DNA of 64,000 bases, taken from Firmicutes bacterium UBA4882. Lineage in GTDB: Bacteria; Bacillota; UBA4882. The position numbers and the translations under genes were made by a program. The DNA is taken from positions 33,847-97,846 of the forward strand of contig DHDG01000039.1 of assembly GCA_002399265.1 (NCBI GenBank). The letters are read 5' to 3'. Of this stretch, positions 1-44,143 are shown piece after piece. The notes beneath the pieces were generated by a model, which was not told where the DNA came from, did no database searches, and worked only from the letters and a program-made list of their open reading frames with translations. Each line of letters begins with the position of its first letter. Positions within the stretch are counted from its first letter, which is position 1.

Positions 1-1
1 T

Positions 2-514
2 AATAAATACTTACATGCCATGGACGTCTGCGTCAACCTGCGTTATCCGGAGGATGGCGAGACCAGTGCCACTATGATTCGGGCATTTGCAGCCGCGAAA
101 CCAGTCTTGTACACACCGTGCGGCGCAGGCGCCGAATTACCGGCGGGGATCGCTTTACCAATCCCGGCTAATTCTTCTGAAATCAGGCTGATTACCACAA
201 CTCTGATCCGGCTTTGCCTTGAACCTCTCCTCAGCAAGCTAATCGGAGAAAAGGCTCGCCGCTATTACAACGCCAATCATTTACCCGAAAGGACCGCCGC
301 AGATTACATACGGATGATTACCACCCTTAGTGGCGGTAGCGGTACCGGTTTCGGTGGGAACGGCAGTGTCGGAGACAGCGCTGGCCGCGGCCTGGGCACC
401 GCCAAGCAAAGCAACAAATCCGAATTCATGCACGGAGGGAACGGTAGTGAAAATAGGAGTGGATCTGCAGGCAATTCAGGGAACGTACAGCGACCGTGGA
501 ATCGGATTCTATAA
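2..514 (+). CDS. 3' part of a glycosyltransferase (GT1-like C-terminal region) that begins upstream of the window; Gly/Ser-rich tail
   Basis: Frame 2 is open from nt 2 with no stop. The sequence resembles the C-terminal half of group-1 glycosyltransferases. The last ~20 codons overlap the next GT gene in another frame. Confidence 0.4.
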   Translation, partial: NKYLHAMDVCVNLRYPEDGETSATMIRAFAAAKPVLYTPCGAGAELPAGIALPIPANSSEIRLITTTLIRLCLEPLLSKLIGEKARRYYNANHLPERTAADYIRMITTLSGGSGTGFGGNGSVGDSAGRGLGTAKQSNKSEFMHGGNGSENRSGSAGNSGNVQRPWNRIL

Positions 515-1787
515 TGAAAGTCTGTTCAAGAAAATAATCGCTGAAAAGCCCGCGCATATGGATTTCTTTTGGTTTTTGCAGCCTCAAAAACCGGTTCCGG
601 AATTTGCCGCGCACTCAGGTCATTCCGTCTTAATGCCAGCGAAAAGGTCAGAACATTGGTACGCAGACATAATCAGTGAGTTGGAACTGGATGTCTTTCA
701 CTGCACCTGTCCTTTCGGCGACTTTCCAGTTCCCAATGTAAGCAATAGCGGTTGCGGGACTATTGCTACCATTTATGACTTAATCCCACTCAAGTTGCCG
801 TTTTATTTCGCGGCAACCGTCAACAAGTCTGATTACATAAGCCGCCTACAGACATTGAAGAAATATCATAGCTTACTGACCATTTCTGACAGTGTCAAAG
901 ATGATATTAGACGCTATTTATCTTATCCGTCTGCGAAAATTTGCGTGATCGGAGCCGGAGTCGATGAGGAATTCTTTCAATGCCCGTCCAATAGCGATAG
1001 GGCTTTGCGCAGTCAGTATCTCATTTCCCAGCCTTATCTATTATGCACCGGCGGGGATGATCCGCGCAAGAACATGCCACGTCTAATTGAAGCGTTTGGG
1101 CTGCTTCCGCCACGCATGTCATCCTGCAAACTAGTAATTGTCTGTGACCTTTCGCCAGCAACGCAAAAAGCACTGTTGGCAAAAGCTGCTGAAGTTGGTG
1201 TTCAGGAACGCCTGATTTTAACCGGTTTTGTGCCCAAAAGCACGCTGATTGCCCTCTACAGATTTGCGGCCGCTTTTGTGTTTCCATCTTTGGCGGAAGG
1301 TTTTGGGTTGCCAATACTGGAAGCCATGGCCTGTGGCACCCCGGTGATCGCTTCCTTTGGTCGACCGTTCACCGACGTGGCCGGAGATGCCGCAATCTAT
1401 TTTGATCCATATAACCCCCATTCAATTGCATTTGCAATGTGCGCTGTGCTGGACAATAAAACCACGCATTTCCTGCTCGGCCAGAAAGGCCTGAAAAAAG
1501 CCGCCTCAAAAACATGGAACGCTGTGGCTCATGCTGCCTTAGCTGCTTATGAGAAGGTCAATGTTAATATTGATCGCCGCCATCGCGCCAATGAAAGCCC
1601 GAAATTGGAACGGCTGCTGACAACGATCCCTCTATCCTTACAGAAAAAACCTGCTCAGCCAGCGGCAGCTTCAGCGCTAACTGCAGCTTCGACACTAGCG
1701 CAGCCGCTAGTACAGGCTCCCCCAAAAAGGCCTTCCGATATCCGGGTATGGCCGGCCGTGTCGCTCAAAAAAGGCTATTTATCCTGA
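447..1787 (+). CDS. Group-1 glycosyltransferase (GT4-like); likely GTG start at 447 (track ORF opens at 330)
   Basis: A GT-B C-terminal signature is present (EGFGLPILEAMACGTPVI). GGAGGG lies 6 nt upstream of the GTG at 447, and the conserved domain begins right after it. There is a Pro/Ala-rich C-terminal tail. Confidence 0.75.
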   Translation: MKIGVDLQAIQGTYSDRGIGFYNESLFKKIIAEKPAHMDFFWFLQPQKPVPEFAAHSGHSVLMPAKRSEHWYADIISELELDVFHCTCPFGDFPVPNVSNSGCGTIATIYDLIPLKLPFYFAATVNKSDYISRLQTLKKYHSLLTISDSVKDDIRRYLSYPSAKICVIGAGVDEEFFQCPSNSDRALRSQYLISQPYLLCTGGDDPRKNMPRLIEAFGLLPPRMSSCKLVIVCDLSPATQKALLAKAAEVGVQERLILTGFVPKSTLIALYRFAAAFVFPSLAEGFGLPILEAMACGTPVIASFGRPFTDVAGDAAIYFDPYNPHSIAFAMCAVLDNKTTHFLLGQKGLKKAASKTWNAVAHAALAAYEKVNVNIDRRHRANESPKLERLLTTIPLSLQKKPAQPAAASALTAASTLAQPLVQAPPKRPSDIRVWPAVSLKKGYLS

Positions 1788-1911
1788 TTGCGTCTGCGCC
1801 CGCAATTGGCCCGACGAAATTCCTTTTTTTACTGTCTGGAAAGTCGGAAAGACTATCAGGCCGCTACCATATGATTAGAAAGGAACATTTATGGAAGAGG
1901 AGCGGTGAGCC

Positions 1912-2994
1912 ATGAAAGCAGTCATCTTGGCGGGCGGATTAGGAACCAGGCTGCGTCCGATGACCTACCGACGCCCAAAACCCGTCATTTCTCTTATGGG
2001 AAGACCTTTTCTGGAATTCCAAATTCGCTGGCTGGAATCATTTGGAGTGGAAGACATCGCTCTGTGCCTGCATTACCAAGCAGATCGGGTTGAGTCTGTT
2101 TTGGGAGACGGAAAACAATACGGCGTTCGTCTACATTACATCTTTGAGGAAACCCCCATGGGAACCGGCGGTGCCCTGGCAAACGCCGCATCTTTTTGGG
2201 GTCAGGATCGGCTTTTAGTCTTGAATGGTGACGTGTTGGTCAATTTTGATCTTTATAGCATGGTAGATATCCATGTGGCACGCAAGTCTGCTGCCACAAT
2301 CGCATTGGCGCGTGTTTCCGATCCGACTTCTTACGGCATGGTAATGGTGAAGCCAGACGGAAAAGTAGCGCGCTTCTTGGAAAAGCCGGCCTGGGATCAG
2401 GTTTCAGTCCGTAGTATCAACGCCGGCGTCTATATTCTGGAGCCGGAAATACTAAAGTTTATCCCGGCAGATCGCGAAATTTCCATCGAACGCGAAACAT
2501 TTCCTGTACTCTTAAGCGCAGGTTTGCCGTTTTATTCCTACCGCGAACCATTTTACTGGCTGGATATTGGGACTCCGGAAAAACTGATGCAAGCCCATTT
2601 TGATCTACTAGATCGTAGGATCTTTGCTAATTTGAATGGCAAACGGGTCAGTGATCACGTATGGGTCGATGATTCTGCCGAGCTGGGGGAGGGTGTCAGT
2701 CTGGTGCCTCCGGTTTTTATCGGAACGCAAGCCAAAATCGGGGCTGGTTCGACTATCGGACCATACGCGGTCATCGGCGCGCAAGCAATCGTAGAGAATG
2801 ATTGTGAGATTCGCCGCTCTGTGCTTTATGAAAACACCATTGTTGGCGCTAACTGCTTTTTATCCTGGTCGCTATTGGATGAACAGTCGCAAATCAGAGA
2901 AGAAGCCAGTATTCAAGGCTTTCTATTTTCCGCGGACTCGGTAATCGGAAAAGGCTGCCGCACTATTAAAGCATCCGAAGCCATTGACTCATAG
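1912..2994 (+). CDS. Sugar-phosphate nucleotidyltransferase (mannose-1-P guanylyltransferase / glucose-1-P thymidylyltransferase-like, with C-terminal left-handed beta-helix)
   Basis: The N-terminal motif MKAVILAGGLGTRLRP is present. An RBS (GAGGAG) lies upstream. A hexapeptide-repeat-like C-terminus is present. Confidence 0.85.
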   Translation: MKAVILAGGLGTRLRPMTYRRPKPVISLMGRPFLEFQIRWLESFGVEDIALCLHYQADRVESVLGDGKQYGVRLHYIFEETPMGTGGALANAASFWGQDRLLVLNGDVLVNFDLYSMVDIHVARKSAATIALARVSDPTSYGMVMVKPDGKVARFLEKPAWDQVSVRSINAGVYILEPEILKFIPADREISIERETFPVLLSAGLPFYSYREPFYWLDIGTPEKLMQAHFDLLDRRIFANLNGKRVSDHVWVDDSAELGEGVSLVPPVFIGTQAKIGAGSTIGPYAVIGAQAIVENDCEIRRSVLYENTIVGANCFLSWSLLDEQSQIREEASIQGFLFSADSVIGKGCRTIKASEAIDS

Positions 2995-3031
2995 AATTTA
3001 GTCGTTTTCAAAACCAGAGGTGATTACCGCC

Positions 3032-4210
3032 ATGTTCAGGTACAGTAACACCACGTTCGGGTTCAGTAATGTGTCATCGTCAAAACCATGTCATGTAAAT
3101 ATCGTCGGGCCGGTATTCGAGCCTACCGGCTACGCGCAGTTGACCAGAAAACTAGCCATGGGGTTGGACGCCGCGGGCATTGCTGTCAGGATCGGCCCTA
3201 TCAAATGGGGAGATGCACCAGAGGGCGTTGATTCCGCCACACGCCTCCGGCTGAATCGCCTGATCGGGGCACCGCTGGCGCAACGCATCACGATTCATAT
3301 CGGGCCACCAGATTTGTATCGTATTCCGGTCGCCGGGTATAGTATCCTGTTCGCTATGCTGGAATCCGACCGCATTCCAGCCCATTGGGCATCAGTCTGC
3401 AATGGCTTCAACGAGATCTGGGTTCCTACCGCATTTAACAAAAGTACTTTTGTCGCTGGCGGGATACGCCCCGGCAAAATCAGAATCGTCCCTTTGGGAG
3501 TGGATCACAGGCTGTTTTTACCACCCGCGGCTGGAACGCGTCCGCATCATCCGTTTACATTCCTGTCAGTGTTCGAGTGGATTCCGCGTAAAGGTTATCA
3601 TTGGCTCATTACAGCGTTTGCACGCATATTCAGCTCGAAGAACGTTCGCTTAGTGCTTAAGGTCCAGAAAAACGCCGGTTATCTGGACTGCCGCACCCAA
3701 ATTATCGCGGAAATCGAATCGCTCTGCAGCCAGGCTGGAAAAACGACCGCTGCACGGCAAATTGAGGTAATCAGCGAGATACTCAATGATAGCGCCATGG
3801 CTTCATTATACGCCCATGCAGATTGTTTTGTCCTGCCCAGCAGCGGGGAGGGGTGGTGCTTCCCCATCGTGGAAGCAGCGGCCGCCGGTCTGCCACTGAT
3901 TACAACTGATTGGGCTGGCCCGGCCGCTTATCTTGACAGAAACAATGCGTACCTGATCCCGGTTAAGAGAATGGTTCCGGCTGGCACAGGCGATCCGTAT
4001 CAGGACTTTCTATATGGCGGCAGCCAGTGGGCAGCACCGGATCCGGAAGTATTGGAACGCGCTATGATGGAAGTTTGGCAAAACCCTGCCTTAGCATTTG
4101 TCCGAGCCGATTCCCAGCGTCAACATATTTTAGGCAATTTTTCCTGGGAATGCGTCATACTAAGGGTAACAGGCCATATCAGAGAGATTCACGGAAATAT
4201 GTCGCGATGA
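3032..4210 (+). CDS. Group-1 glycosyltransferase
   Basis: GT1 C-terminal motifs are present (FVLPSSGEGWCFPIVEAAAAGLPLI). The ATG at 3032 is preceded by AGAGGTG. The track ORF begins at a GTG at 3020. Confidence 0.8.
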   Translation: MFRYSNTTFGFSNVSSSKPCHVNIVGPVFEPTGYAQLTRKLAMGLDAAGIAVRIGPIKWGDAPEGVDSATRLRLNRLIGAPLAQRITIHIGPPDLYRIPVAGYSILFAMLESDRIPAHWASVCNGFNEIWVPTAFNKSTFVAGGIRPGKIRIVPLGVDHRLFLPPAAGTRPHHPFTFLSVFEWIPRKGYHWLITAFARIFSSKNVRLVLKVQKNAGYLDCRTQIIAEIESLCSQAGKTTAARQIEVISEILNDSAMASLYAHADCFVLPSSGEGWCFPIVEAAAAGLPLITTDWAGPAAYLDRNNAYLIPVKRMVPAGTGDPYQDFLYGGSQWAAPDPEVLERAMMEVWQNPALAFVRADSQRQHILGNFSWECVILRVTGHIREIHGNMSR

Positions 4211-4223
4211 GGAGTGGCCGGGC

Positions 4224-5288
4224 TTGAAGAAAATTTTATTTTTATGCCGAGATCGTCTGACAACCAATCGGGCAGGGGACACCATCCAGATCGAGCAAAC
4301 AAAGCAAGCTCTGGAACGACTAAATGTCGAGGTGGACCTGATGACAACGTCCCAAGCTGAAAAGCCGGGTGCTTTTGTGGGACGTTTTTATGACGGAATC
4401 CACTTGTTTAATTTGATCCCGGTGGAAGAGACCTGGAGACAAGCCAGAATTGCAGATAGGCTTGGCATTCCATTCGCTCTGTCAACGATTTACTGGAACA
4501 TCGAGGAATACTTGCAGAAAGGCGGAGAACGGAGCGCCTCAGCGAAGATTTGGTGGCGTCAGGCCCAAACAATCAGACGGCTCCTGGCAGACAGCGCTCA
4601 AATACTACTGCCCAATTCACTGGCAGAAAAGGAGCTGCTCCTTACGGATTTCGGGGAAGATCTGGCCTGGAAAATGCATATTGTTCCCAATGCCGTAGAC
4701 CTGACGTTATCGGAAAACAGCCCTGAGCGATTCCGCACCCAGTTTGGCGTCAAGCGGCAATTTGTGCTCAGCGTGGGACGGATTGTGCGCCGCAAGAATC
4801 AGCTCGCGTTAATCCGCGCTTTGCAGAGTACTAATTTGCAGCTTGTTCTGATCGGTCCGGTCAATGATGCGGACTATTATCGCGAATGCCAAGCAGAAGC
4901 AAGCGACAAAGTGCGTTTTATTCCCGAGTTATCTTCGCAAATGCTGGCGTCCGCCTATGCGGCCGCCCGCGTCCATGCCCTGGTAAGCTGGTATGATACT
5001 CCAGGCCTGGTATCTTTGGAGGCGGCTTTGATGCAGTGTCATATTGTCACTACCGATCGCGGTCCTACCAGAGAGTATTTTGGTGATGATGCTTTTTATT
5101 GCGCGCCGGACTCTCCAGAGTCGATTAAAAATGCGGTGCTTAATGCCTGGAAAGCTTCTGCCAACGATCAATTGCGGGACAAAGTCATCAAAAACTACTC
5201 GTGGCAAAACTCAGCAGCAGCAACTTTGAAAGCCTATGATCATTTTGAAAAAGCAGGCGTGAAGACACGCCTGCTTGAGGAGGGATAG
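4224..5288 (+). CDS. Group-1 glycosyltransferase
   Basis: A GT1 C-terminal domain is present (LSVGRIVRRKNQ...SWYDTPGLVSLEAALMQCHIV). The start is TTG with an upstream GGAGTGG. Confidence 0.8.
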   Translation: MKKILFLCRDRLTTNRAGDTIQIEQTKQALERLNVEVDLMTTSQAEKPGAFVGRFYDGIHLFNLIPVEETWRQARIADRLGIPFALSTIYWNIEEYLQKGGERSASAKIWWRQAQTIRRLLADSAQILLPNSLAEKELLLTDFGEDLAWKMHIVPNAVDLTLSENSPERFRTQFGVKRQFVLSVGRIVRRKNQLALIRALQSTNLQLVLIGPVNDADYYRECQAEASDKVRFIPELSSQMLASAYAAARVHALVSWYDTPGLVSLEAALMQCHIVTTDRGPTREYFGDDAFYCAPDSPESIKNAVLNAWKASANDQLRDKVIKNYSWQNSAAATLKAYDHFEKAGVKTRLLEEG

Positions 5289-5295
5289 GGGAGAG

Positions 5296-5778
5296 TTATA
5301 TGCACGACGCCGGGAAACACCAGATACCTCTGCCCTGTGCCGGACCGGTCGCAAATACTCCGCAATGACCGGTGAGGACATCGATCTGCTCCAGGCTGGC
5401 AACTTTGATTAATACATGAGCCACTACTTTTTCAAGCAAGACTCCGTTGCAGAGCTTGAAATCAACAAAAAGATCCTGCAAGAAATTCTCAACGATGTGA
5501 CCGGGCTGGGTGCCGGGAATATCAGCCGCGATAACGAATGGAATGTCTACCCCTGTATGGCGGACAAAGTTGTCAGCGTCAACCCAGAAAATCTGTTTAT
5601 GAATGAACCCCTGTTTGACGACTTTATTTGGAAACACGTGATCCGTAACGTTCACCAAAGACGCTACTACGCGATCCACTTTAATGGCATCTGGAAGAGG
5701 AACATCAGCCGCCTCTACTATTTGCACCACTTTTTCCCCAACAACCCGCTCTGCTTTAATGCGAACTTTTTTCCACAT
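5296..5778 (-). CDS. Hypothetical protein, paralog 1 of a tandem pair (~160 aa, no recognisable domain)
   Basis: The ORF is ~60% identical to 6011..6496. Both begin MWKK at an ATG preceded by the same AAAGGCAGGTG RBS context. The first 20 codons of the track ORF were trimmed. Confidence 0.6.
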   Translation of the reverse strand: MWKKVRIKAERVVGEKVVQIVEAADVPLPDAIKVDRVVASLVNVTDHVFPNKVVKQGFIHKQIFWVDADNFVRHTGVDIPFVIAADIPGTQPGHIVENFLQDLFVDFKLCNGVLLEKVVAHVLIKVASLEQIDVLTGHCGVFATGPAQGRGIWCFPASCI

Positions 5779-6010
5779 TGAACTGTCCACCTGCCTTTCT
5801 GCTTTCAGCATATGGCCCAAAATCCCTGACTGTAACATGCCGAAAGCACAATCGCGTATTTATTTTATATCCCGATTCGTACCGACCGCCTCATCTCGTG
5901 CGCGTAAAGCGAGGCTATCCTTCCGGACAGCCTCGCCTCACCTAACATCTGAAGTCGCGATCTATATTGGTGATCTGGCCTCTAAAGCCTGTTATCACGG
6001 AATCAGAGAA

Positions 6011-6496
6011 TTAGGGATCGCAACCGAAGAACTGAAATACTGTCTGCCCAGGGGCAGGGCCGCTTGAAAATACACCACATTGGCCTGTGATGACATCAAG
6101 CTGCTCCAGGACGCTAACCTTCACCAGCACATGAGCGACTACTTTTTCGCATAAGAAGCCGTTGACCAGCTGGAAGTCGGTAAATACATCCTGCAGGAAC
6201 AGTTCTACGATTTGACCTGGAGTGGCAGCAGGAATATCGCATGCCGCACAAAACGGAATATCCTGAGCGATATGTCTGACAGTGTTGGTAGAGTCAACCC
6301 AGAATATTTGTTTGTGAACGAATCCCTGCAATACTACTTTGCCAGGGAAGAGATGATGGACGATATTAGTTAACGTGGCGACAATGCGATCCACCTTAAT
6401 GGCACCCGGCAATGCGAGAGCCGGCGCCTCTTCCACAATTTGAGCGATGCATTCGCCGACTACTCGTTCAGCCTTAATACGGGCTTTCTTCCACAT
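6011..6496 (-). CDS. Hypothetical protein, paralog 2 of a tandem pair
   Basis: The ORF is homologous to 5296..5778 along its full length, with the same RBS and the same MWKK start. Confidence 0.6.
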   Translation of the reverse strand: MWKKARIKAERVVGECIAQIVEEAPALALPGAIKVDRIVATLTNIVHHLFPGKVVLQGFVHKQIFWVDSTNTVRHIAQDIPFCAACDIPAATPGQIVELFLQDVFTDFQLVNGFLCEKVVAHVLVKVSVLEQLDVITGQCGVFSSGPAPGQTVFQFFGCDP

Positions 6497-6615
6497 TCGT
6501 GTCACCTGCCTTTCTGATTTCAGCTTATGCTGGCGATGGTCCTAAGTTTCGGGACAGCAGACCAACTTAATGCGCAAAGTGCTTTTAGCCGGACCGAGGC
6601 TTTGGTGTCGGGGCC

Positions 6616-7083
6616 TTAACGCCTGGATTCTAGTCCCGGGGGCGATGAACGGGCTCCTTTGCAATGAGGCGACCGGCGAATGGCAACATAATCAGGCACC
6701 TGCCAGGATGCTCTGGCGATCTGCATGCCATTTTCGAGAAAGACTTCAAAATTGATCAATTCCTTATAGAAGAAACTGCTGTCAAGGGCGGCTGCAAAGG
6801 TCGTTTCCGGAACTGGTTGGGCTATTATTACAGCTTCATGCCCCCGATAATAGACAAACAAGGGTCGAAAGCCATAGCAAGCCAAGATAATGCGGTCTGG
6901 AGGCCATTGCCATTGACCCTGGCTTTGGCTTGGGCAGTTTGCTTCATCGCGAAACTGAGCAAGGGTGGCGAAAACGCTAATACCGGATTGCTTGTTCTCA
7001 TTGCTGTATTCTAAAAAGGATTCCGGATGTAAAGGGATGTACTCGACAGCAGGGAATGGGCAGATTTGACGGGGAACATTCAA
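6616..7083 (-). CDS. Hypothetical protein downstream of the anti-sigma factor gene
   Basis: A 155-aa ORF with a weak RBS. A 116-aa ORF on the opposite strand overlaps it and cannot be excluded. Confidence 0.3.
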   Translation of the reverse strand: MNVPRQICPFPAVEYIPLHPESFLEYSNENKQSGISVFATLAQFRDEANCPSQSQGQWQWPPDRIILACYGFRPLFVYYRGHEAVIIAQPVPETTFAAALDSSFFYKELINFEVFLENGMQIARASWQVPDYVAIRRSPHCKGARSSPPGLESRR

Positions 7084-7209
7084 ATTGATCGCCTCCGCCG
7101 TGTAGTTTATTGCATCCTATGCTCAAATCCCAAAAATGGTTCAGTCACAAAAAATAGGCTGTTCATTGCCGAACAGCCTCAAAAGAATGGGGGATATGAG
7201 TTTACGAGA

Positions 7210-9711: not shown

Positions 9712-9957
9712 TCACTGAATTGTATGAAATGGGTCTGTCAAATTAAACATGCTGTTACCGCGGCTTCTGTCTAAAAAAACGATTGAAAGACTAAAAAGTT
9801 CCTGAGCGATTACTTGAGCGGTAGCCTAGGCTGTCATTAGTGCGCCTTATCTCAGATTTTATCCGCCAAATCAGGAGGAAATGGGCTGGTGGGGTGGAAT
9901 AAAGGTGAGAGAAAGCATGTGCGCAATTGTGCACATTTTGCTAAAAGGGGATAGAAC

Positions 9958-18871: not shown

Positions 18872-20410
18872 GTGAAGTTGGTTCGAAAAAAACAACGGTT
18901 ATTCCTATATTTGATGATACTAATCGCAGCTTTAATCGCATTACGGGTTGCTCCGGCAAACGTGGCCGCTCAGACGTCTGCCACAACCTCGACGACTCCG
19001 CAAGCATTGCAGGGCAAGCAGCAACCGGCGGCGCAGCCGTCAGTGGAACCATCCATTCCTCTTTTTGGCAAGCAGGTGCTTTGGGAAGGCTTGCCGCAAT
19101 CTGAGGTCGGATTGCATTTTGCAGACCTCGATTTGGACGGGCTATCCGAAGTCATCTCTGTCTCAGAAGGAAGTGCCAAAATTTACAAGGCGTTTAATCG
19201 CCACTTTGAACTGCAGGCTACCATATTTTTAGAAGGCAAGAATTTCGTTTCCATTAATTCTGCAGATTTAGACGCCGATGGAAGCATTGAAATAATTCTG
19301 GGTACTGACGACCTTGGCTATTTAGCAATATACCGGTGGGATAACCGCCCGGTTCCCGTTGCTGTTAGTCGCCACACCTGGAAACCTGTTGAGCATATTA
19401 TCATTATTGATACTGAAGGAGACGGACTGAAGGAGATCTTCTCTGTCGCCTCTGATGGCGATGCCACCTTGTTTCGTTTTTCAGGTACTTCTATCGACGC
19501 AATCTGGCGCGGAGCAAAGGCGTTTCCTGATATCAAGACTTTTGCGACCATTCAGCTTGACGGAAGTGGACCGGAAGAACTACTGACTGTTGATAAGACC
19601 AGAAATGGTTTTGTGATCTATTCGTGGCAAAAAGGCGTTCTGAAAAAAATGTTGGAAAACTTGCCTTGGGGTGGCATTCTAGACTTTGTCGTCTGTGACA
19701 TCGATGGCGACGGAGCTGATGACATTCTAGCCATATCCGCCAGACGCATGTTTTACGCTTTTACTTGCATCGAGGGGGGCGTGCAGCAGAAAATTGCACC
19801 ATTTGAAACGCCAACCTTATGCGGCCGGATTTTCCAGTCTACTGACTTTCCGGGATCCTTTGCTTTAATTAGCAACTCATCATCGCAAGTGTTCAGTTAT
19901 TTTTGGAATAACGGTTCCCCAAAGGAACTAGCCCGCAGCACTACTTTTGGCCGTTCGCGTTTATTTACACTACTGCGTAATGAGGAGCTACTTTTCATTC
20001 TCAATACGGGAGAAATGATTTCGGTGGCCATGACGGCCCCTGAAAAACCGGATTTGATTGGCGTAATACTTAAAGATCGGCTGACAGTCTGGGAGCATTC
20101 ACCGCAGTTAGTGGAAGGCCATCCATACCTGCCATTGAGTGAGCTTGAGAGTATTCTTCCTCTGGAATGTGTTTTGTCTACAGAAAGTGGGGTAGGATAT
20201 CTTACGGCTTGGACAGGCACTTTTGCTTTCAAAACCGATAGCCCAATACTACTATTTACGATATTGCCCGACTGCACGCCGGAAATTCTGGCCAACCCGG
20301 TCCGCACATTTAGTGACGGGCAAGTTTACCTTCCATTAGAAATGATTAACCGGGTCCTACCCGGAAGAATTAAATGGGATGGCGACCGGGTAATATTGAT
20401 TGTCGGATGA
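18872..20410 (+). CDS. Secreted FG-GAP/VCBS-like repeat protein with C-terminal copper-amine-oxidase N-terminal-like (stalk) domain
   Basis: A signal peptide is present. Repeated DxDGDG calcium-binding-like motifs occur (DLDGLSE, DLDADGS, DIDGDGADD). The C-terminal ...GQVYLPLEMINRVLPGRIKWDGDRVILIV motif is present. The start is GTG after AGGGGGGA. Confidence 0.6.
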   Translation: MKLVRKKQRLFLYLMILIAALIALRVAPANVAAQTSATTSTTPQALQGKQQPAAQPSVEPSIPLFGKQVLWEGLPQSEVGLHFADLDLDGLSEVISVSEGSAKIYKAFNRHFELQATIFLEGKNFVSINSADLDADGSIEIILGTDDLGYLAIYRWDNRPVPVAVSRHTWKPVEHIIIIDTEGDGLKEIFSVASDGDATLFRFSGTSIDAIWRGAKAFPDIKTFATIQLDGSGPEELLTVDKTRNGFVIYSWQKGVLKKMLENLPWGGILDFVVCDIDGDGADDILAISARRMFYAFTCIEGGVQQKIAPFETPTLCGRIFQSTDFPGSFALISNSSSQVFSYFWNNGSPKELARSTTFGRSRLFTLLRNEELLFILNTGEMISVAMTAPEKPDLIGVILKDRLTVWEHSPQLVEGHPYLPLSELESILPLECVLSTESGVGYLTAWTGTFAFKTDSPILLFTILPDCTPEILANPVRTFSDGQVYLPLEMINRVLPGRIKWDGDRVILIVG

Positions 20411-20493
20411 TTGTCAACTGATTGCTGATTTGCCCTGGCGGGTCATAAGTGCGTTTCCCTCCTGCATAGTAATATTGTAGATGTAGGAGGGGA

Positions 20494-20895
20494 GTGTCCG
20501 ACATGAAAGATAACGCGGTTAGGGAAAATAGCTCTACGATTGGTGCCATTGTGCGCGGCTTGTTTATTTCCCTGCTGTTTGGCGTTGTGGTACTAATTCT
20601 GTTTACGATCGTTTTGTCCGTAATGGGCGCGCGTCCAACCGACGTACCGATGACGATTGTTCTTCTTTCGTATGTTACTGCCCTATTTGGCAGTATCACT
20701 GCTGGCAGACACTCGCCAAACCGCGGATGGCTGGCAGGCGGCTTAACTGGTGCTTTGTTTATGATCCTGCTGCTATTGTTCTTTGCCATGATTCCGGAAT
20801 CTGTTCTGAGCTGGCCTTTGGCGCTACTTCGCATTGCCTGCGCTTTTCCGGTGGGTGCGCTTGGCGGAATGCTGGGGGTCAACATTGGAACGTGA
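20494..20895 (+). CDS. Small integral membrane protein (4 predicted TM helices)
   Basis: The hydrophobicity pattern supports TM helices. AGGAGGGGAG lies upstream. Confidence 0.5.
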   Translation: MSDMKDNAVRENSSTIGAIVRGLFISLLFGVVVLILFTIVLSVMGARPTDVPMTIVLLSYVTALFGSITAGRHSPNRGWLAGGLTGALFMILLLLFFAMIPESVLSWPLALLRIACAFPVGALGGMLGVNIGT

Positions 20896-20979
20896 GTGGG
20901 TGAGTGAGCAGCAGGAGTAGGGGAGCTGATTGGGTAGTGTCTGGGTGGGGTGAGACTTAGAATGGTTTCAAATGCCTGC

Positions 20980-21008
20980 TTGACGTCCCTTTGTAGATCG
21001 AGTATAAT
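20980..21008 (+). promoter_or_regulatory. Sigma-A promoter for tRNA-Trp (TTGACG-17-TATAAT)
   Basis: Near-consensus hexamers with a 17-nt spacer lie ~20 nt upstream of the tRNA. Confidence 0.7.
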
Positions 21009-21026
21009 AAAAAAGCACTCACACGC

Positions 21027-21102
21027 AGGGGAGTAGCTCAATTGGTAGAGCATCGGTCTCCAAAACCGAGGGCTGCGGGTTCAAGTCCTGTCTCCCCTGC
21101 CA
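21027..21102 (+). tRNA. tRNA-Trp (anticodon CCA)
   Basis: The acceptor stem is aggggag/ctcccct. The anticodon loop reads cuCCAaa. The sequence ends in ...CCCCTGCCA, like Bacillus tRNA-Trp. Confidence 0.85.
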
Positions 21103-22635: not shown

Positions 22636-22932
22636 TTATGGAAGCTGTAAAAGCATGCCAGGCTGAAGATTTTTGGATGCCAGGCCATTGAGCTTGCAGA
22701 TCTGATTAACTGTAACGCGTGGGTCGCAATCTGGATTATGCTTAACAGCAATATTCCACAAAGTATCTCCTGGACGAACTACCGTAAATTCTTCGTTTTG
22801 AGCAGGTTTTTCACTAGATAGCGCTGTTGTTGCCAAGATTAAGAATAACACAGAAAGTATTGCCATATTTCGAAGAAATATAAGCGGTCTCCAACGCAAA
22901 CGTTTTTTTACCTGCATTATTCCCCACCCCAA
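22636..22932 (-). CDS. yneA: LysM-domain membrane protein, YneA-like SOS cell-division inhibitor candidate
   Basis: A LysM motif (VRPGDTLWNIAVKH...) follows an N-terminal TM helix. The gene is divergent from lexA and shares the LexA-box region with it. Confidence 0.6.
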   Translation of the reverse strand: MGWGIMQVKKRLRWRPLIFLRNMAILSVLFLILATTALSSEKPAQNEEFTVVRPGDTLWNIAVKHNPDCDPRVTVNQICKLNGLASKNLQPGMLLQLP

Positions 22933-23093: not shown

Positions 23094-23702
23094 GTGGAAG
23101 ATCTGACTGCTCGCCAACAAGAAATCCTCGATTTTATTAGAAAAGAAGTGCGCGAAAAGGGCTATCCTCCCTCTGTACGTGAAATTGGCGAAGCTGTAAA
23201 CCTGAGCTCAAGTTCTACAGTTCATTCCCACTTAGAACGTCTCGAGAAGCTCGGATACATCCGTCGAGATCCGACCAAGCCGAGAGCCATTGAAATCCTT
23301 TCTGAATCATCAACCGCCCCTGCCCCTGTAATCAATGTACCTTTAATTGGACGGGTGGCGGCCGGCTCGCCCATTCTCGCCGAACAAAATGTTGAGGACA
23401 TCTATCCCCTGCCAAAAGACTTTGTCTTATACGAAGATGCTTTTATGCTTAAAGTCCGTGGCGACAGCATGATTGAGACGGGCATCTTCGATGGAGATTT
23501 GGTAGTAGTGCGTCGCACGACCGATGCCAGGAACGGAGAGATCGTGGTCGCACTTGTCGGAGAGGAAGCTACCGTAAAGCGCTTTTTCCGCGAAAAAGAC
23601 TGCATCCGTCTTCAACCCGAAAATTCAGCTATGGAGCCTATTATGGTGAAAGATGTTACAATCTTGGGTAAGGTCACGGGCCTGCTACGCAAGATTCATT
23701 AG
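23094..23702 (+). CDS. lexA: LexA repressor
   Basis: The N-terminal wHTH ([13 protein letters not shown]...[10 protein letters not shown]) and the C-terminal S24 peptidase motifs (VAAG...GDSM) are present. The start is GTG after GAGAGGAG. Confidence 0.9.
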
Positions 23703-25582: not shown

Positions 25583-27346
25583 TTATTGTGATAGATTTTG
25601 AATAAAATAACCAAACATCGCAGGCGTTATTCCGGGAAACGCTCTGCAAAGAGCTTCTATATCGATGGTATTGCTCTTAGCAAAAACGCGCAGTTGCTCC
25701 AGTGTATTTTCAATCTCAGGAATGGTCGAACCGCCAAGCGGGGTCAGGGTATTATTGCTCCATTTCAGTACCAGCTGGGACGATTGAAGCCAAAGGTTAG
25801 GATCAACCATTTCATCAATCAAGACAAGCTTGGGTGAAAGTGCTGCCAGCAACTCACATGACTCAGTATTTTGAGAATCCAGTAAAAACAGTGATGGCTT
25901 ATCCAGAAACTCCAATGCAATAGCAGGGACTGGCGCGTTCTTTGTCTTATTAATCCCTTGCAGCAGTGCAATGCTGAACCGGTCAGCGGCAATTGCTTTT
26001 CGCAGGCTTTTGGCCAAATCAGCGCGGGCCTCGGGAGAATCAGCATTCAGTGTGAGCTTTGCTAACAAACCTAAAAGTGACTCCAATTCCGATTGGATGC
26101 GACTTAATTGGAACTGCACAACTACCTTTTCCTGATCGGCAACCAGACCGCCATATTTGCCAGAATATCTGTTCAATAAATCTGACAGACGGCTCAGACT
26201 TTTTTCATATTTTCGCTGGGCCTTAGACGGGCTACTCTTGCCAGGATCCTTAAGCAGTTCACTTTCAATTTTAATGGTCTTTGATAGTGCCTTATAGACT
26301 TTTCTATTATCGAGAAACAGCGCCGGGTTAAACTGAATGGCCGGAACAGGCATTGCTTTTAGCCGACCTAAATCTTTAATAAGCGCATTCTCTTCACCCT
26401 TGAGTTTTCCATATTGATCAAGCAAGACCAAATGTTGTTCAAGAGTTTTGATTTCCTTTTCCAGGGAATCAAGCACTTCTTGCCTGAATGATAACTGCTG
26501 CCAGACCTGAACAAGCTGCTGCGATAGATCATATAGCTCTTTTTCTCCGCCGTAATAGGCAGGCGGATCCATCTGAGACAGACAGTCTTTTAAAGTGCCA
26601 ACAATTGGACCTGACATGACACAAGCCACAAATTTCTTGCGTTCATCTTTGAGAGAGAAGGACCATTTTATCAATGCAGCGGCGATTTCGGGGAGCGGAG
26701 CTGAATTCCAGTTCAGAGGCAGATATTTGTTTTTGAGTATAGCAACCTGCTGCTCAGTGATTTCTTTACCGACCAGCTGTGCAAAGCAGTCCGGTGAATG
26801 CGCAGGTACAACTTGAGGTACTGTGGCCCCGGAGAAAAAACTTCCGACATTCTGATTGCCCGCCAGAGTTTTGGAACCAGCCATGTCGTTCATGTTATTT
26901 AGAAAAGCAGTATAATCGCTTTTGGGTAACTCAAATTGCAGGACATCAGAAATCTCCTGATTACCCGTATTATCCAGCAGGTTCTGATGATCATACCCCG
27001 GAATTATTATTTCCCAACGCATCGGCAGCTGCTGCCCATATGCTGACATTAAATCGAAAATGTCATGTGAAAGCTTAAAGCAATGTATCACACAAATAAC
27101 GGTGCCCTGTCCGCCTGGGTGCGCGACAGGGCCACCGCATTCAAGCACTGTGTCACCGGCGACTAAGTAAACTGTTTTGTTCTTTTCGGCCCCGGTGATC
27201 TTTTTTTTGAGTAATGAGTTTAATTCATCACGGACTTTTTCATCTGAATCAATTGACGTTGCCCCAAGAATACTACGCAATTCGCTCCAGGATGCATGAT
27301 CAAATGTCAAGAAATAGTTGTCCGTGGATTGTCCTAAATTATGCAA
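25583..27346 (-). CDS. Hypothetical 587-aa soluble protein (N-terminal alpha/beta region, central coiled-coil-rich region); third gene of a cryptic three-gene operon
   Basis: No recognisable domain or nucleotide-binding motif. The ATG is preceded by GGGGGG 12 nt upstream. The gene follows gene B after a 60-nt spacer without a terminator. Confidence 0.6.
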   Translation of the reverse strand: MHNLGQSTDNYFLTFDHASWSELRSILGATSIDSDEKVRDELNSLLKKKITGAEKNKTVYLVAGDTVLECGGPVAHPGGQGTVICVIHCFKLSHDIFDLMSAYGQQLPMRWEIIIPGYDHQNLLDNTGNQEISDVLQFELPKSDYTAFLNNMNDMAGSKTLAGNQNVGSFFSGATVPQVVPAHSPDCFAQLVGKEITEQQVAILKNKYLPLNWNSAPLPEIAAALIKWSFSLKDERKKFVACVMSGPIVGTLKDCLSQMDPPAYYGGEKELYDLSQQLVQVWQQLSFRQEVLDSLEKEIKTLEQHLVLLDQYGKLKGEENALIKDLGRLKAMPVPAIQFNPALFLDNRKVYKALSKTIKIESELLKDPGKSSPSKAQRKYEKSLSRLSDLLNRYSGKYGGLVADQEKVVVQFQLSRIQSELESLLGLLAKLTLNADSPEARADLAKSLRKAIAADRFSIALLQGINKTKNAPVPAIALEFLDKPSLFLLDSQNTESCELLAALSPKLVLIDEMVDPNLWLQSSQLVLKWSNNTLTPLGGSTIPEIENTLEQLRVFAKSNTIDIEALCRAFPGITPAMFGYFIQNLSQ

Positions 27347-27406: not shown

Positions 27407-29221
27407 TCATTGGCCGCCTTTTAATTTAGCAATCATATCATCGATTTGCTTCTGGGACATGATCGGTTCTCCCTCATCTTTTGCCGGTCCTGCCATTATA
27501 GGAGCAGTTGTCTTGCCAGACGTGACTGGCAAAGGCGCCATCCCCATCCGGTTAGTTTGGAACGGCTGAACCTGCGACTGGCCCAAAGAAGGAGTCCTTA
27601 GACCAGGTTGACTTGTGGAAGGTTCCGGCATGGTTCGATTAACCGGCTGTGCGTTAAATGGCCGCGGTTGTGGCGGTTGTTGCTGCTGTGGTTGTTCCGG
27701 CAGGAACGGCTGTGCCGGCAACACGCTTCTTTGAAATTGAGCCATCGTGTCCGGATTGGAGGGCACCTGCCGAGCAAAAGGCTGCGACAGCGAGTTCGAG
27801 TTCGAGTTCAAGTTCGAATCAGCAGGTTTAGGATCATCACTATCGTTATTAGGGGCAAACTGCCTGAAAAGGTCGTCAATCGATTTCTGACTCATTGATA
27901 CTGCACTATAAGAACTTGGCTTAATACGATTCCCGGCCACATCTTTCATTGAATCGTTCATAGCGCGGCCTTCAGACGATGCTGCAACCTCTGGAACGGA
28001 ATAACCGGGCTTTTTAAGCAGCCTATCCGCTACATCTTGGGAAACATCGCCTTCTACAGCATAACTTTCGCTATATTTAATTTTTACCTTACCCTTATCA
28101 TTATAATCGGCGCTACCAGCACTGGGTTCGGAAACCAACTTTTCTGAAACACTCTCGACGTTTTTGGTAGCTTCATTTTCTCTCGGAAACACCCAGCCAT
28201 CCAATATGTTATTGGCAGGCTGTGCGTTGGCGGTTTGTGCACTGGTATTGCCAGAAATGAAGGGAGCACTATTTGCTTTGACGTCCAGAGAAAAGAGCGA
28301 ATCGCTCTGCTCTTGTTCCGGTACGGCGCTTCCGTTTGACAAATCTCCGCCGACCGAAAGGTCAAAATGAAGCTCTTCAGTTTGCGGAGCAGATTGCGCG
28401 TTCATTTCGAAACCCGGCACCGAACTTGCACCAACCTCCGCTGGTATTGCTGCTTCCTTAAAGAAAACAGGAGCTTGCTCAGCTGCCGGCGTTGATGGCA
28501 TCACCGGTGTCGGTGCAACTGGCATCGCTGAGGCCACGAATTCGTCGAAAGCAGGCGCAGGATCTGATTCTACTACTGGTGACGAAGGAGCAGCTTTGAC
28601 AATTTCCACCCAAGGCTTAGGCTGCGGCGCAGAAGGCCTTTCGCTGACTACTTCAGCCACTGGAGATACTGCAGGTTTTACCATTGGGGCCGCTGCAGGT
28701 TGTACCACTGGCGGTGGAGCTGGCGCTGCTGCGGGTTGTGCTGGCCTTTCGCTTTTGTAATAATGTGACTCTGAGGCGGATTCCTCCGGAAAGAAAAAGG
28801 AATAAAGCGCTTCTGCTGAAGGCGTGGGAATAAATTCATCTTCAGGCAAAAGGATTTCCCATGAAGCTTTAATTAAAACGCCTTCATTAAAGGCTGTCAC
28901 TGCATCACCATCGGAAGTTTGACGGCAGGAATGCACTCTCAATACCGAACCGGTATCCTTACGCACGAGCGTACAAGGTAGCACAAAGCATCTGGATAGC
29001 AGCAGCAGGTTGTTGCCTTCTTTAATAGCCCAAATATCCGACTCCAGAGTTTTCTGCAGCGTTGTTCTTGGATCGGAGGTGCGCGGATCGATTGGTAATT
29101 GTTTCTTTACTTCAGCGGGAATTTGAAACAGGATGCGCATGAATCCGTTCCAGCTGGCTTCTGTAAATTGCAGAGAGACTTCTTGTTCAATGCTAAATTC
29201 TCGTCCATGAAGTTGTTGCAT
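27407..29221 (-). CDS. Hypothetical protein: ~170-aa N-terminal globular domain followed by a ~430-aa Pro/Ala/Gln/Ser/Asn-rich disordered region
   Basis: The ATG (MQQLHG...) lies 1 nt after the gene C stop, with GGGGGG inside the gene C 3' end. The low-complexity region is extreme (PAQPAAAPAPPPVVQPAAAP..., NSNSNS, QPQQQQPPQPRP). No TM segment. The track ORF starts 14 codons earlier. Confidence 0.6.
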   Translation of the reverse strand: MQQLHGREFSIEQEVSLQFTEASWNGFMRILFQIPAEVKKQLPIDPRTSDPRTTLQKTLESDIWAIKEGNNLLLLSRCFVLPCTLVRKDTGSVLRVHSCRQTSDGDAVTAFNEGVLIKASWEILLPEDEFIPTPSAEALYSFFFPEESASESHYYKSERPAQPAAAPAPPPVVQPAAAPMVKPAVSPVAEVVSERPSAPQPKPWVEIVKAAPSSPVVESDPAPAFDEFVASAMPVAPTPVMPSTPAAEQAPVFFKEAAIPAEVGASSVPGFEMNAQSAPQTEELHFDLSVGGDLSNGSAVPEQEQSDSLFSLDVKANSAPFISGNTSAQTANAQPANNILDGWVFPRENEATKNVESVSEKLVSEPSAGSADYNDKGKVKIKYSESYAVEGDVSQDVADRLLKKPGYSVPEVAASSEGRAMNDSMKDVAGNRIKPSSYSAVSMSQKSIDDLFRQFAPNNDSDDPKPADSNLNSNSNSLSQPFARQVPSNPDTMAQFQRSVLPAQPFLPEQPQQQQPPQPRPFNAQPVNRTMPEPSTSQPGLRTPSLGQSQVQPFQTNRMGMAPLPVTSGKTTAPIMAGPAKDEGEPIMSQKQIDDMIAKLKGGQ

Positions 29222-29222
29222 C

Positions 29223-30581
29223 TTAATTCCCCCCGCCAGGATTGATAAGAGGGTTAATATCACTCATAACCCAGAACTTTTGCAGACCGGGAGCCAGAAA
29301 CTCCCACCACCCGGAATCCTTGACGCCACTTCGATAACGATGTCGAACTGCAACCGCTGGAATATCATGACTCAATACCGAAAGCTTGCCGACATTCAAA
29401 TCTGATTCAGTGTAGATATTTGTTCCGGCCTTCAAATAGTCAAAAGCGATCTGATCCTGCTTTATCCAGCCATCTAGTTGTGAATTCTGTACGTAAAGCC
29501 ACGGTTCCTGCAAGGAGTCATAATCTCTTTCGAGAATATCCAGTTTTTCACCGGATTGAAAGCGACCCTGAGGATCCCCTCCGCCAACTCTCGGGAAAAC
29601 ATTGACAACGCCTTTGGCATAACCGCGGATTGTTGTAACCGAAAACTCCTCACTGATAGGCAGTCGCAACGTTTTTGCTATCTCAGGAGCAGTCTCCCCC
29701 ACCCAATACTTGGCGATATACCAGGCTTGCTGAAAATACATCGGTTTGAACTGGTAGGCCCCGAAAAAAACTCCACCAATAATCATCAGGACCAGAGCTA
29801 CCTTAGCCAACTTTGACGAAGATCTGCTTCTGGATCTGGATATAGACTTTGATTTGGCACGGCGTTCAAATCGTCTTTGGGCTGGCCGCGGCTCCGTTCG
29901 TGGACCGGTGCTGCACTCAAAAGCAGTTACGTGAAAACGCTCTAACTCAATTGAATCCAAGACTTTCGGAAACTTGCCGAAATAGGCGTCTAAATCGGAC
30001 GGTTTCAAGATCCTGTATGGAAAAGGCAAGAAATTATATTGCTTGTCTTGCGGAAAATCATGCAAAATTATGATGCTCGGTATAACATTGAGGGTTGCTT
30101 TTTTTACGCGTGCCTGTGTCCATTGGCAGACAGCGAGGATTGTTTCCTGCAACTCTGTTTTGGAATCAGCAAGATTCTGACCCTCTAAATCAGCCCTGTC
30201 AAATATAACGAAGATACCTGCAGAACCTGACGCAATAAGGGCCGGATCCCTTTTTTGGATAGACCAGTCATCCGGCATTTGTATCAGTTTCCCGGCTGCC
30301 TGAATTTTGGCTTGATGTTCAAATACCCACTGGGCATCCTGATCATTTTTCGAAAACAAAGCGATCATGAAAAGAGCAACTACAGCTAACAGAAATAAAA
30401 GCCCGCCCGCCATTGCGAATCTGAAATCAACAAACCCGCCAATGGCCAGGATTACCATAGCTGTTGTTATAACCAGCCCGCCGATTGAGATCAGCAACAG
30501 GAAATTGAAAATGCGGTTTTTCGGAGAAAAACCCTTAGCGGGTGAAACATCCGCTATAATGCTCGTCAATAACCCGGCCAA
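29223..30581 (-). CDS. Membrane protein with 3 TM helices: cytoplasmic NERD-like segment between TM2 and TM3, basic Ser/Arg-rich linker, extracytoplasmic LysM-like + SH3b-like C-terminal region
   Basis: The start is TTG after AGGTGG, 6 nt upstream. The motif GSAGIFVIFDRADLEG...W resembles the NERD core GIFVIEVK...W. The C-terminal GEKLDILERDYD...WLYVQNSQLDGWIKQDQIAF is SH3b-like. The segment GETAPEIAKTLRLPISE is LysM-like. Confidence 0.55.
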   Translation of the reverse strand: MAGLLTSIIADVSPAKGFSPKNRIFNFLLLISIGGLVITTAMVILAIGGFVDFRFAMAGGLLFLLAVVALFMIALFSKNDQDAQWVFEHQAKIQAAGKLIQMPDDWSIQKRDPALIASGSAGIFVIFDRADLEGQNLADSKTELQETILAVCQWTQARVKKATLNVIPSIIILHDFPQDKQYNFLPFPYRILKPSDLDAYFGKFPKVLDSIELERFHVTAFECSTGPRTEPRPAQRRFERRAKSKSISRSRSRSSSKLAKVALVLMIIGGVFFGAYQFKPMYFQQAWYIAKYWVGETAPEIAKTLRLPISEEFSVTTIRGYAKGVVNVFPRVGGGDPQGRFQSGEKLDILERDYDSLQEPWLYVQNSQLDGWIKQDQIAFDYLKAGTNIYTESDLNVGKLSVLSHDIPAVAVRHRYRSGVKDSGWWEFLAPGLQKFWVMSDINPLINPGGGN

Positions 30582-42457: not shown

Positions 42458-42814
42458 ATGGGCAGTGGGCAAAAATCTAATACTCCTGTTGTTCAGCAGG
42501 CATATAAAGCCCTGGATCAATTCAAATATGAAGTTGCCAATGAGCTTGGCATTGATCAAAACCAGATCTACGGCGGCTACTGGGGCAACCTAACTTCTCG
42601 CGACTGCGGAGCAGTCGGGGGACATATGGTACGCCGCATGATTGAAGCTGCTGAACGTTCCCTGGCCGAACAGACTATGGCAGGCGTAAAAACCGGCTTC
42701 CAGTCGGCTTTCAACGCTAGCAGCAATCTGAACGTCAATCCGAACAATATTACCGGTACGAAACCCAGTTTCACCCAGTCTCCGTCCAGTGAGGGACCCA
42801 CTCGTTACGTATAA
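42458..42814 (+). CDS. Small acid-soluble spore protein, alpha/beta type, with ~45-aa Q/N/S-rich C-terminal extension
   Basis: The SASP signatures KALDQFKYEVANELGI and GGHMVRRMIEAAE are present. A strong RBS AGGAGGTGAT is present. Confidence 0.85.
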   Translation: MGSGQKSNTPVVQQAYKALDQFKYEVANELGIDQNQIYGGYWGNLTSRDCGAVGGHMVRRMIEAAERSLAEQTMAGVKTGFQSAFNASSNLNVNPNNITGTKPSFTQSPSSEGPTRYV

Positions 42815-42870: not shown

Positions 42871-43203
42871 ATGGGTAGTGGACAGAGAAGCAATGCTCCC
42901 GTAGTCCAGCAGGCGTACAAAGCCCTGGATCAGTTTAAATACGAAATCGCCAATGAGCTCGGCATTGATCAGAATCAAATCTATGGCGGTTACTGGGGTA
43001 ACCTGACCTCCCGTGACTGCGGAGCAGTCGGAGGTCATATGGTACGGCGCATGATCGAAGCTGCTGAACAATCATTGGCTCAGCAGGCCCTGGCTGGTAT
43101 GAAAACCGGATTCCAGACCGGCTTTAATGCGGCGGGAAGCAACCCGAACCAGAGTGTGAAAATCGGCACCACACCAAACCAAGGTCCGAATACCTATCAG
43201 TAA
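42871..43203 (+). CDS. Small acid-soluble spore protein, alpha/beta type (second tandem copy), extended C-terminus
   Basis: The conserved core is the same. RBS GGAGGTG is present. Confidence 0.85.
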   Translation: MGSGQRSNAPVVQQAYKALDQFKYEIANELGIDQNQIYGGYWGNLTSRDCGAVGGHMVRRMIEAAEQSLAQQALAGMKTGFQTGFNAAGSNPNQSVKIGTTPNQGPNTYQ

Positions 43204-44058: not shown

Positions 44059-44143
44059 GCCCGTACCTCCTGCCTTTTTATTCAATCTTATTTGGCATGC
44101 CGCCACTGACTGCTATGGCGCAATCAGCTTATGGCGCAACCTA

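Follow-up and report, generated by a model that had tools for sequence, protein, structure and literature searches.

We examined a tandem pair of minus-strand genes, here called SPOCS-A and SPOCS-B (A and B), in a 64,000-nucleotide stretch (the window) of contig DHDG01000039.1 from the metagenome-assembled genome (MAG) of Firmicutes bacterium UBA4882, and we describe their family, fold class, duplication history and gene organisation. Profile comparisons place both proteins in the known SPOCS/DUF3794 family as uncharacterised members and not in a new protein family. We favour, with moderate confidence, the interpretation that A and B are structural or scaffolding parts of the spore envelope, either of an outer coat or of an exosporium-like layer, in an uncultured endospore-forming Bacillota. 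The name SPOCS stands for SpoVID-CotE-SipL, and the domain was reportedly defined by Delerue in 2022. In their phyletic distribution, SPOCS proteins vary together with SpoIVA, SpoVK and SafA. They have been divided into two functional classes, namely Cys-poor organisers and Cys-rich proteins that self-assemble into lattices. SpoVID, CotE and SipL represent the coat morphogenetic class, and CsxA, CsxC and probably CdeC represent the class that forms disulphide-stabilised lattices in the spore envelope.

Family membership was examined by searches with the single sequences and with a profile of the pair. A matched the Pfam model PF12673 (SipL/SPOCS, formerly DUF3794) over residues 50-99 with 24.3 bits (E 3.7e-5), where the gathering cutoff is 23.6 bits; the model has 78 positions and spans only about half of the real domain. 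A word-indexed search returned only 14 close relatives, and their alignment (A1) served as the profile for A and B. Against the word index, this profile retrieved 228 proteins, mostly of 168-200 amino acids (aa), named 'DUF3794' or 'SPOCS domain-containing protein' and derived from Bacillota MAGs, as are the source records. B falls in the same profile family as A, and nearly all relatives of the two have precomputed PF12673 matches. When the profile was searched exhaustively against 1.84 billion representatives, 352 proteins were found at E<=1e-3. The best matches (E 1e-60 to 1e-92) were proteins of 400-830 aa with 3-6 tandem copies of the whole unit, and all ten of the top multi-unit proteins that were scanned matched PF12673 at E 1e-21 to 1e-65. 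When 148 of the retrieved representatives were examined by local hmmsearch, 27 had one unit, 23 two, 73 three, 17 four and eight five, the median unit length being 136 aa. The unit counts and the profile matches together indicate that A and B each consist of one complete SPOCS unit followed by a tail of about 22 residues. The original prediction had held that no family is recognisable. This claim does not survive the profile searches, since A passes the Pfam cutoff, the profile reaches the multi-SPOCS proteins and NCBI names the relatives DUF3794 or SPOCS. The family so found is a described one, within which the pair belongs to an uncharacterised single-domain subfamily.

The structure of A was predicted with AlphaFold2 (AF2) from an alignment of 113 sequences (A2). 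The monomer model has a predicted local distance difference test score (pLDDT) of 87.5, with six long beta strands in residues 1-139 and a disordered tail in residues 140-161. Structure prediction, proposed earlier as a check, thus returned a confident all-beta domain of six strands for A. The SPOCS domain has been described as a beta domain of two three-stranded sheets, and the predicted strands of A agree with this by description. Searches of the PDB found no solved structure significantly similar to the model, so that sequence is what supports the fold assignment. The tail of A, GQCGVFSSGPAPGQTVFQFFGCDP, is almost invariant among its orthologs even though these are only about 76% identical overall. 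The B orthologs have in common the tail GHCGVF.TGPA.G..IWCFP.C, and the C-terminal residues of B differ between lineages. Cys-bearing C-termini recur across the subfamily.

Most of what had been predicted about the genes themselves agrees with our measurements. Open reading frames (ORFs) were found at both proposed positions (Table 1), and BLASTP aligned the two proteins end to end with 65% identity across 156 residues (E 9e-74), slightly above the 60% or so that had been claimed. Both proteins begin with MWKK(A/V)RIKAERVVGE, and both genes are preceded by the same upstream element, the 13-mer AGAAAGGCAGGTG, as was expected. The Kyte-Doolittle means over 19 residues peak at 1.47 for A and 1.49 for B, which supports the claim that there is no transmembrane segment, and neither protein has a signal peptide. 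Valine makes up 14.3% of A and 17.5% of B, in line with their description as Val-rich; cysteines number six in A and four in B. The longer ORFs, which start at 6505 for A and at 5838 for B, had been suspected of being over-extended. Comparison with orthologs bears this out: L023A, L007B, L023B and L010B (numbers with L denote the related loci) have an in-frame stop 9-30 nt before the conserved ATG and no other start codon in between. It follows from these stops that the 160-aa form of B is correct. Public gene calls give copy B 160, 171 or 180 aa (window 5779-5838 and 6497-6505, minus strand), because in this lineage the frame also contains an ATG that lies within the putative -10 box CATATGCTG. 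In public records A is DHD79_01625, B is DHD79_01630 and a 155-aa ORF next to A is DHD79_01620, all three named 'hypothetical protein' in a 'Firmicutes bacterium' MAG. The exact proteins are present on many fermentation-metagenome contigs, and a variant of A that differs by one residue is named 'DUF3794 domain-containing protein'.

We next consider the age and the maintenance of the duplication. The tandem pair is present, where the contig allows, in five lineages, namely the window, L001/L024, L007-9, L023 and L010 + L022 (contig ends), and it is also recorded in L011-14 and L019; a scan of a genome collection yielded one locus only, L001, from a Bacillota MAG. All lineages examined have intact reading frames for both genes. 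Between the window and the L001 ortholog, the ratio of nonsynonymous to synonymous substitution rates (dN/dS) is 0.027 for A and 0.063 for B, and the synonymous sites between A and B are saturated (proportion of synonymous differences about 0.8). The saturation and the low ratios point to an old duplication of which both copies were maintained, and this substitution pattern indicates that both copies are functional and under strong purifying selection. Together with the gene, its promoter and leader were duplicated. A neighbour-joining tree unites the A and B sequences in a group that is sister to sequences of the type of P0012, a third paralog elsewhere in the same MAG (DHD79_01105, 181 aa, about 48% identical). 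The A orthologs cluster and four B orthologs (window, L001, L007 and L010) form a second clade, while L023B and P0007 fall beside the A clade with ambiguous placement. The original prediction had asked whether relatives carry one or two copies. The A/B lineages carry the tandem pair, and the wider P0012-type subfamily is single-copy at its own locus, with one copy within ±5 kb in all 27 metagenomic loci. A and B are a lineage-specific extra pair beside this wider single-SPOCS subfamily.

Upstream of A, B and their orthologs, the sequence follows the pattern (A/T)AC, 15-17 variable bases, (C/A)ATAnGCT(G/A)AA..CAGAAAGGCAGGTG. The -35 AC and the -10 CATAnGCT boxes are kept in the orthologs and the spacer varies, as expected for a promoter. 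The consensus for sigmaK is AC at -35 and CATA---T(A) at -10, and that for sigmaE differs by ATA at -35 (PMC3789822). The -35 box, the -10 box, the spacer of 16-17 nt and the distance to the start all match the sigmaK consensus upstream of A and B, and the assignment is to be read as a consensus match. The window contains eight matches to AC-N16/17-CATAnnnT[GA] against 4.3±2.1 expected, three of which sit 28-55 nt upstream of the 155-aa ORF, A and B. A further match, AC-N17-CATAGTATG, lies in L019, 35 nt upstream of an epimerase gene that heads the neighbouring glycosyltransferase (GT) operon, and a gene for a 616-aa protein in L019 is preceded by AC-N15-CATATAGTA. In the wider subfamily, CATAnnnT was found on the sense strand within 130 nt upstream in 17 of 23 loci, which are not all independent, compared with 4 of 23 on the antisense strand and 3.9±1.8 in shuffled sequences.

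The 13-mer AGAAAGGCAGGTG constitutes an extended Shine-Dalgarno (SD) element. It occurs exactly twice in the window, where 0.08 copies are expected by chance, and is invariant in all ten ortholog upstream regions. For the anti-SD we used the canonical 3' end of Bacillota 16S rRNA, which may not be that of this organism; the element is predicted to pair with it over 13 bp with one bulged C, at -18.2 kcal/mol for A and -17.2 kcal/mol for B. Downstream, B is followed by a hairpin with a U-run (fold -20.1 kcal/mol, z -7.75). Another hairpin lies between A and B, where the 126-nt region 5890-6015 has a minimum free energy of -51 kcal/mol and where the intergenic length ranges from 150 to 318 nt among lineages; it may terminate the A transcript or stabilise its 3' end. 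The hairpins after A and B were missed by a strict terminator scan on account of their short T-runs, and folding shows both to be strong. Since each gene has its own promoter-like element, SD element and hairpin, A and B are read as separate transcription units.

The window carries two tandem genes for alpha/beta-type small acid-soluble spore proteins (SASPs), which mark the genome as that of an endospore former. These genes and the Bacillota MAG records agree with the occurrence of SPOCS proteins in endospore-forming Bacillota. Apart from the SASPs, the scanned ORFs of the window included no sporulation gene. Visual inspection upstream of the SASP genes revealed no clear sigmaG-type promoter, and this intended positive control was dropped. 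The SASP genes form a second tandem paralog pair, with products of 110-118 aa that extend about 45 residues at the C-terminus past the 59-position model.

The order of genes around the pair is conserved and runs htrA, extracytoplasmic function (ECF) sigma factor, zf-HC2 anti-sigma factor, terminator-like site, 155-aa ORF, A, B and the convergent GT operon. The 155-aa ORF accompanies the pair in every lineage with sequence there. It has no Pfam family and only five close homologs, and its AF2 model (pLDDT 50) is unusable. Its product contains the motifs CxxPAVEYIPL and YYRGH...GFFYK, and the ortholog in L001 has a QSQYQSQ low-complexity insert. The synteny of the GT operon is kept in L007-L010 and L019. 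Its first gene, the epimerase gene, and the associated sigmaK-type promoter-like element lie just left of the window, and locus L019 (window position = L019 position - 8089) covers this part. Directly left of the window start, L019 1-6161 encodes an 815-aa protein with at least four SPOCS units, then proteins of 616 and 739 aa without a Pfam match; the epimerase/GT operon, which extends into the window, lies downstream of all three. The 815-aa SPOCS protein, the large proteins, the GT operon, A and B resemble one spore-surface island of about 15 kb.

The original prediction had placed the pair next to an ECF sigma/anti-sigma/HtrA envelope-stress module. The adjacency is indeed conserved; the module is not the immediate neighbour, as the terminator-like site and the 155-aa ORF intervene. 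A tie to this module, which the description implied, is not supported, given the different promoter type and the terminator-like end of the operon. A classic ECF-type promoter precedes htrA in both the window and L001, and a sigma-70-like TTGACA-N17-ATACAA is found directly upstream of the ECF sigma gene (about 8470-8442). The ECF-type promoter suggests that the htrA, ECF sigma and anti-sigma genes form an autoregulated operon. This operon is probably unrelated to the pair, and the promoter sequences give no sign of co-regulation despite the conserved adjacency.

Table 1. Positions of the SPOCS gene pair, its putative control elements and associated features (window coordinates).
Feature	Position	Strand	Description	Basis
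SPOCS-A	6011-6496	-	161 aa: one full SPOCS/DUF3794 domain (~1-139) + 22-residue tail GQCGVFSSGPAPGQTVFQFFGCDP	ORF, PF12673, AF2
SPOCS-B	5296-5778	-	160-aa paralog of A with its own conserved tail GHCGVF.TGPA.G..IWCFP.C	ORF, BLASTP, profile
Extended SD / 5' untranslated region (5'UTR) element of A	6503-6515	-	AGAAAGGCAGGTG	invariant in orthologs
Extended SD / 5'UTR element of B	5788-5800	-	AGAAAGGCAGGTG, same 13-mer	
SigmaK-type promoter-like element of A	6521-6547	-	AC-N16-CATAAGCTG	motif scan, ortholog conservation
SigmaK-type promoter-like element of B	5806-5833	-	AC-N17-CATATGCTG	motif scan, ortholog conservation
SigmaK-type promoter-like element of 155-aa ORF	7113-7140	-	AC-N17-CATAGGATG	motif scan
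Hairpin + U-run after B	5252-5275	-	intrinsic-terminator-like; inside 3' end of convergent GT gene	
Hairpin between A and B	5904-5942	-	strong, 17 bp, weak U tract	folding
155-aa ORF	6616-7083	-	conserved, directly upstream of A	conserved in L001, L007, L022, L023
Sugar-nucleotide / GT4 operon	1-5288	+	convergent; four GT4 genes + one NTP-transferase gene	Pfam
Terminator-like site after anti-sigma gene	7179-7156	-		terminator scan
ECF-type promoter of htrA	9778-9802	-	classic; GGAACTTTTTAG-N-AATCGT (GGAAC-N16-CGTT)	conserved window and L001
Two alpha/beta-type SASP genes	42458-42814 and 42871-43203	+	tandem	PF00269, E 6e-27 and 3e-27

Several other genes of the window were recorded. Genes with TonB_C, ExbD and ExbB domains and a gene for an SLH-domain coiled-coil protein are found at 46123-47910 and 43321-44106 (both minus strand). 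Their combination in a spore-forming Bacillota hints at an outer membrane and thus at a diderm lineage such as Negativicutes or Limnochordia. A miaB-like gene is followed after a gap of 74 nt by mutS-mutL-miaA (38596-39978 / 35751-38522, minus strand), and no CotE-like gene is present between miaB and mutS in the window. In B. subtilis, cotE is located at this position; the gap without cotE is consistent with a spore former outside the Bacilli that relies on other SPOCS proteins. Five minus-strand ORFs have no Pfam match: 25583-27346 (587 aa), 27407-29263 (618 aa), 29223-30581 (452 aa), 44144-46246 (700 aa) and 20370-21053 (227 aa). Three of them are consecutive (25.6-30.6 kb), and those of 587, 618 and 227 aa are also without an NCBIfam match. 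The gene lexA and a divergent gene for a small LysM protein occupy 22636-22932 (-) and 23094-23702 (+), a YneA-like arrangement of an SOS cell-division inhibitor; public gene calls place a DUF4264 gene after lexA.

A and B share some features with the SPOCS systems described so far and differ from each of them in others. CsxA and CsxC of Clostridium sporogenes are SPOCS proteins that form exosporium and parasporal lattices (bioRxiv 10.64898/2026.09.03.749163), and together with CotE they have been modelled as strand-swapped trimers. A and B resemble CsxA and CsxC, whose trimers tile into spore-envelope lattices, in being small, apparently made in the cytoplasm, built on a SPOCS beta domain and equipped with cysteines. 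Unlike CsxC (14 Cys) and CsxA (24 Cys), they are not Cys-rich, and they differ further in their tandem arrangement, in their position beside a GT operon and in belonging to a different, uncultured Bacillota lineage. The NCBIfam model CsxC_fam (NF045794) matched only weakly and in the N-terminal half (A, 15.4 bits, E 0.015; B, 14.4 bits, E 0.03). As these scores are far under the curated cutoff of 135 bits, membership in the CsxC family was rejected and the kinship is remote only.

SipL of C. difficile, the namesake of PF12673, belongs to the same domain family, and the relatives of A and B most often have three tandem units, as SipL does. SipL consists of three SPOCS units and a C-terminal LysM domain and acts as an early, sigmaE-dependent organiser of the basement layer that binds SpoIVA. 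In contrast, A and B have a single unit, no LysM match and sigmaK-type promoter-like elements; a SipL-type morphogenetic architecture was rejected on account of the single unit and the missing LysM domain. CotE and the N-terminal domain of SpoVID from Bacillus subtilis are of the same SPOCS fold class, and CotE is reported to be a trimeric hub of the outer coat. Sequence similarity of A or B to CotE or to the SpoVID N-terminal domain was not detected here. CotE and SpoVID are organisers, whereas the role we propose for A and B is structural. The proteins of the single-SPOCS subfamily of about 170-200 aa (for example P0012), which is widespread in uncultured Bacillota, are 35-50% identical over the whole domain, similar in length and likewise end in a Cys-bearing tail; most of their loci carry a mother-cell-type CATAnnnT box upstream. 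They differ in their PNP_UDP_1 / OPT context, in a loop insertion, in the tail motif ..FPK.NS..C and in being single-copy.

The genome of a spore former, the lack of an export signal, the late mother-cell-type promoters, the strong SD element, the Cys tails, the GT operon and the giant SPOCS neighbour together argue for A and B as abundant, late components of an outer layer. From these features we infer a scheme for their sigma factor, localisation, oligomeric state, cross-linking and glycosylation. Each gene would be transcribed separately, late in sporulation, by mother-cell RNA polymerase with sigmaK (AC-N16/17-CATAnGCT) and would be translated efficiently from its near-complete complement to the anti-SD. 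The proteins, which lack signal peptides, would be synthesised in the cytoplasm of the mother cell and laid down on the surface of the forespore. There the single units would probably trimerise, as homotrimers or A/B heterotrimers, and tile into a layer; we suggest this because three-unit proteins are the commonest relatives (73 of 148) and because CsxA, CsxC and CotE are modelled as trimers. The conserved C-terminal tails may supply inter-subunit strands and disulphide cross-links, and the products of the neighbouring GT operon probably make a glycan located on this layer or around it.

Several points weigh against this proposal. B by itself has no Pfam match, PF12673 included. The organism is taken to sporulate from its SASP genes only, and the sigmaK assignment depends on a consensus that is short and degenerate and was taken from B. 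subtilis and C. difficile, with G as the final -10 base where A is usual. The predicted model of A is a monomer, so that trimer assembly is suggested by analogy. In addition, four to six cysteines per protein are far fewer than the 24 of CsxA and the 14 of CsxC, which makes extensive disulphide lattices less certain. The low cysteine content also speaks for the reading that A and B are morphogenetic adaptors, which would recruit or organise coat proteins (perhaps the 815-aa multi-SPOCS protein or the 155-aa protein) and would not form a layer. The Cys-poor organisers SipL, SpoVID and CotE are similar in this respect, the literature separates organising from lattice-forming SPOCS proteins on this very feature, and A and B are conserved beside the giant SPOCS protein and the 155-aa ORF. 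Nonetheless, we regard an adaptor role as rather unlikely. Neither protein has a LysM or other anchoring domain, and the conserved terminal Cys motifs resemble cross-linking tails. The extended SD and the invariant 5'UTR point to high expression, a trait found more typically in structural proteins. Moreover, the sigmaK-type promoter-like elements are late, whereas organisers of the basement layer are early and depend on sigmaE.

Two other explanations fare worse than an adaptor role. Because the pair lies beside the htrA, ECF sigma and zf-HC2 anti-sigma genes in all relatives, and because copy A has GAAAC, similar to an ECF -35 box, in its -35 region, the adjacent ECF sigma factor might control A and B, which would then work with HtrA in a vegetative envelope-stress response. 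This is very improbable in our view: the htrA operon has a classic ECF promoter of its own, kept in L001, and the anti-sigma gene is followed by the terminator-like site, while A and B have CATA and not CGT at -10 and the B copies have TTAC, CCAC or TCAC at -35. Without a signal peptide or transmembrane segment, the two proteins could not take the Sec route to the vegetative envelope, and the SPOCS family is tied to sporulation. Hardly any weight can be given to the idea that only one copy functions and that the other is a decaying or redundant duplicate. Copy B does score under the Pfam threshold and its C-terminal residues do vary. The idea is nevertheless largely refuted by the intact frames, the low dN/dS of both copies and the saturated synonymous sites between them, by the promoter boxes, SD and hairpin that B retains, and by the separate orthologous clades of A and B with their distinct conserved tails, the ambiguous placement of L023B aside. 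We thus return to structural or scaffolding components of the spore envelope as the interpretation to be preferred.

A bolder version of this interpretation is possible, although we hold it to be doubtful: A and B may be the minimal single-domain subunits of an undescribed, heteromeric, glycan-associated outermost spore layer in a possibly diderm uncultured Bacillota, encoded in a sigmaK-controlled spore-surface module of about 15 kb. If so, the module would comprise the 815-aa multi-SPOCS protein, the two large proteins, the epimerase/GT4 operon, B, A and the 155-aa ORF. The disordered, conserved tails would be inter-subunit latches, and the invariant SD-bearing 5'UTR would also serve as an mRNA stabiliser.

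For the annotation of this locus, the label moves from an unknown pair near a stress module to spore-envelope SPOCS proteins in a probable sigmaK surface-layer/glycosylation island. The practical value is modest and lies in better annotation for a clade of Bacillota MAGs from fermentations and digesters, along with a candidate spore-surface locus should a member of the clade be brought into culture. SPOCS has only recently been recognised as a widespread scaffold of clostridial coat and exosporium layers. Single-unit versions that exist beside three-unit relatives offer a natural system for how one beta domain builds trimers and lattices, and A together with B might represent a heteromeric variant of such an assembly.

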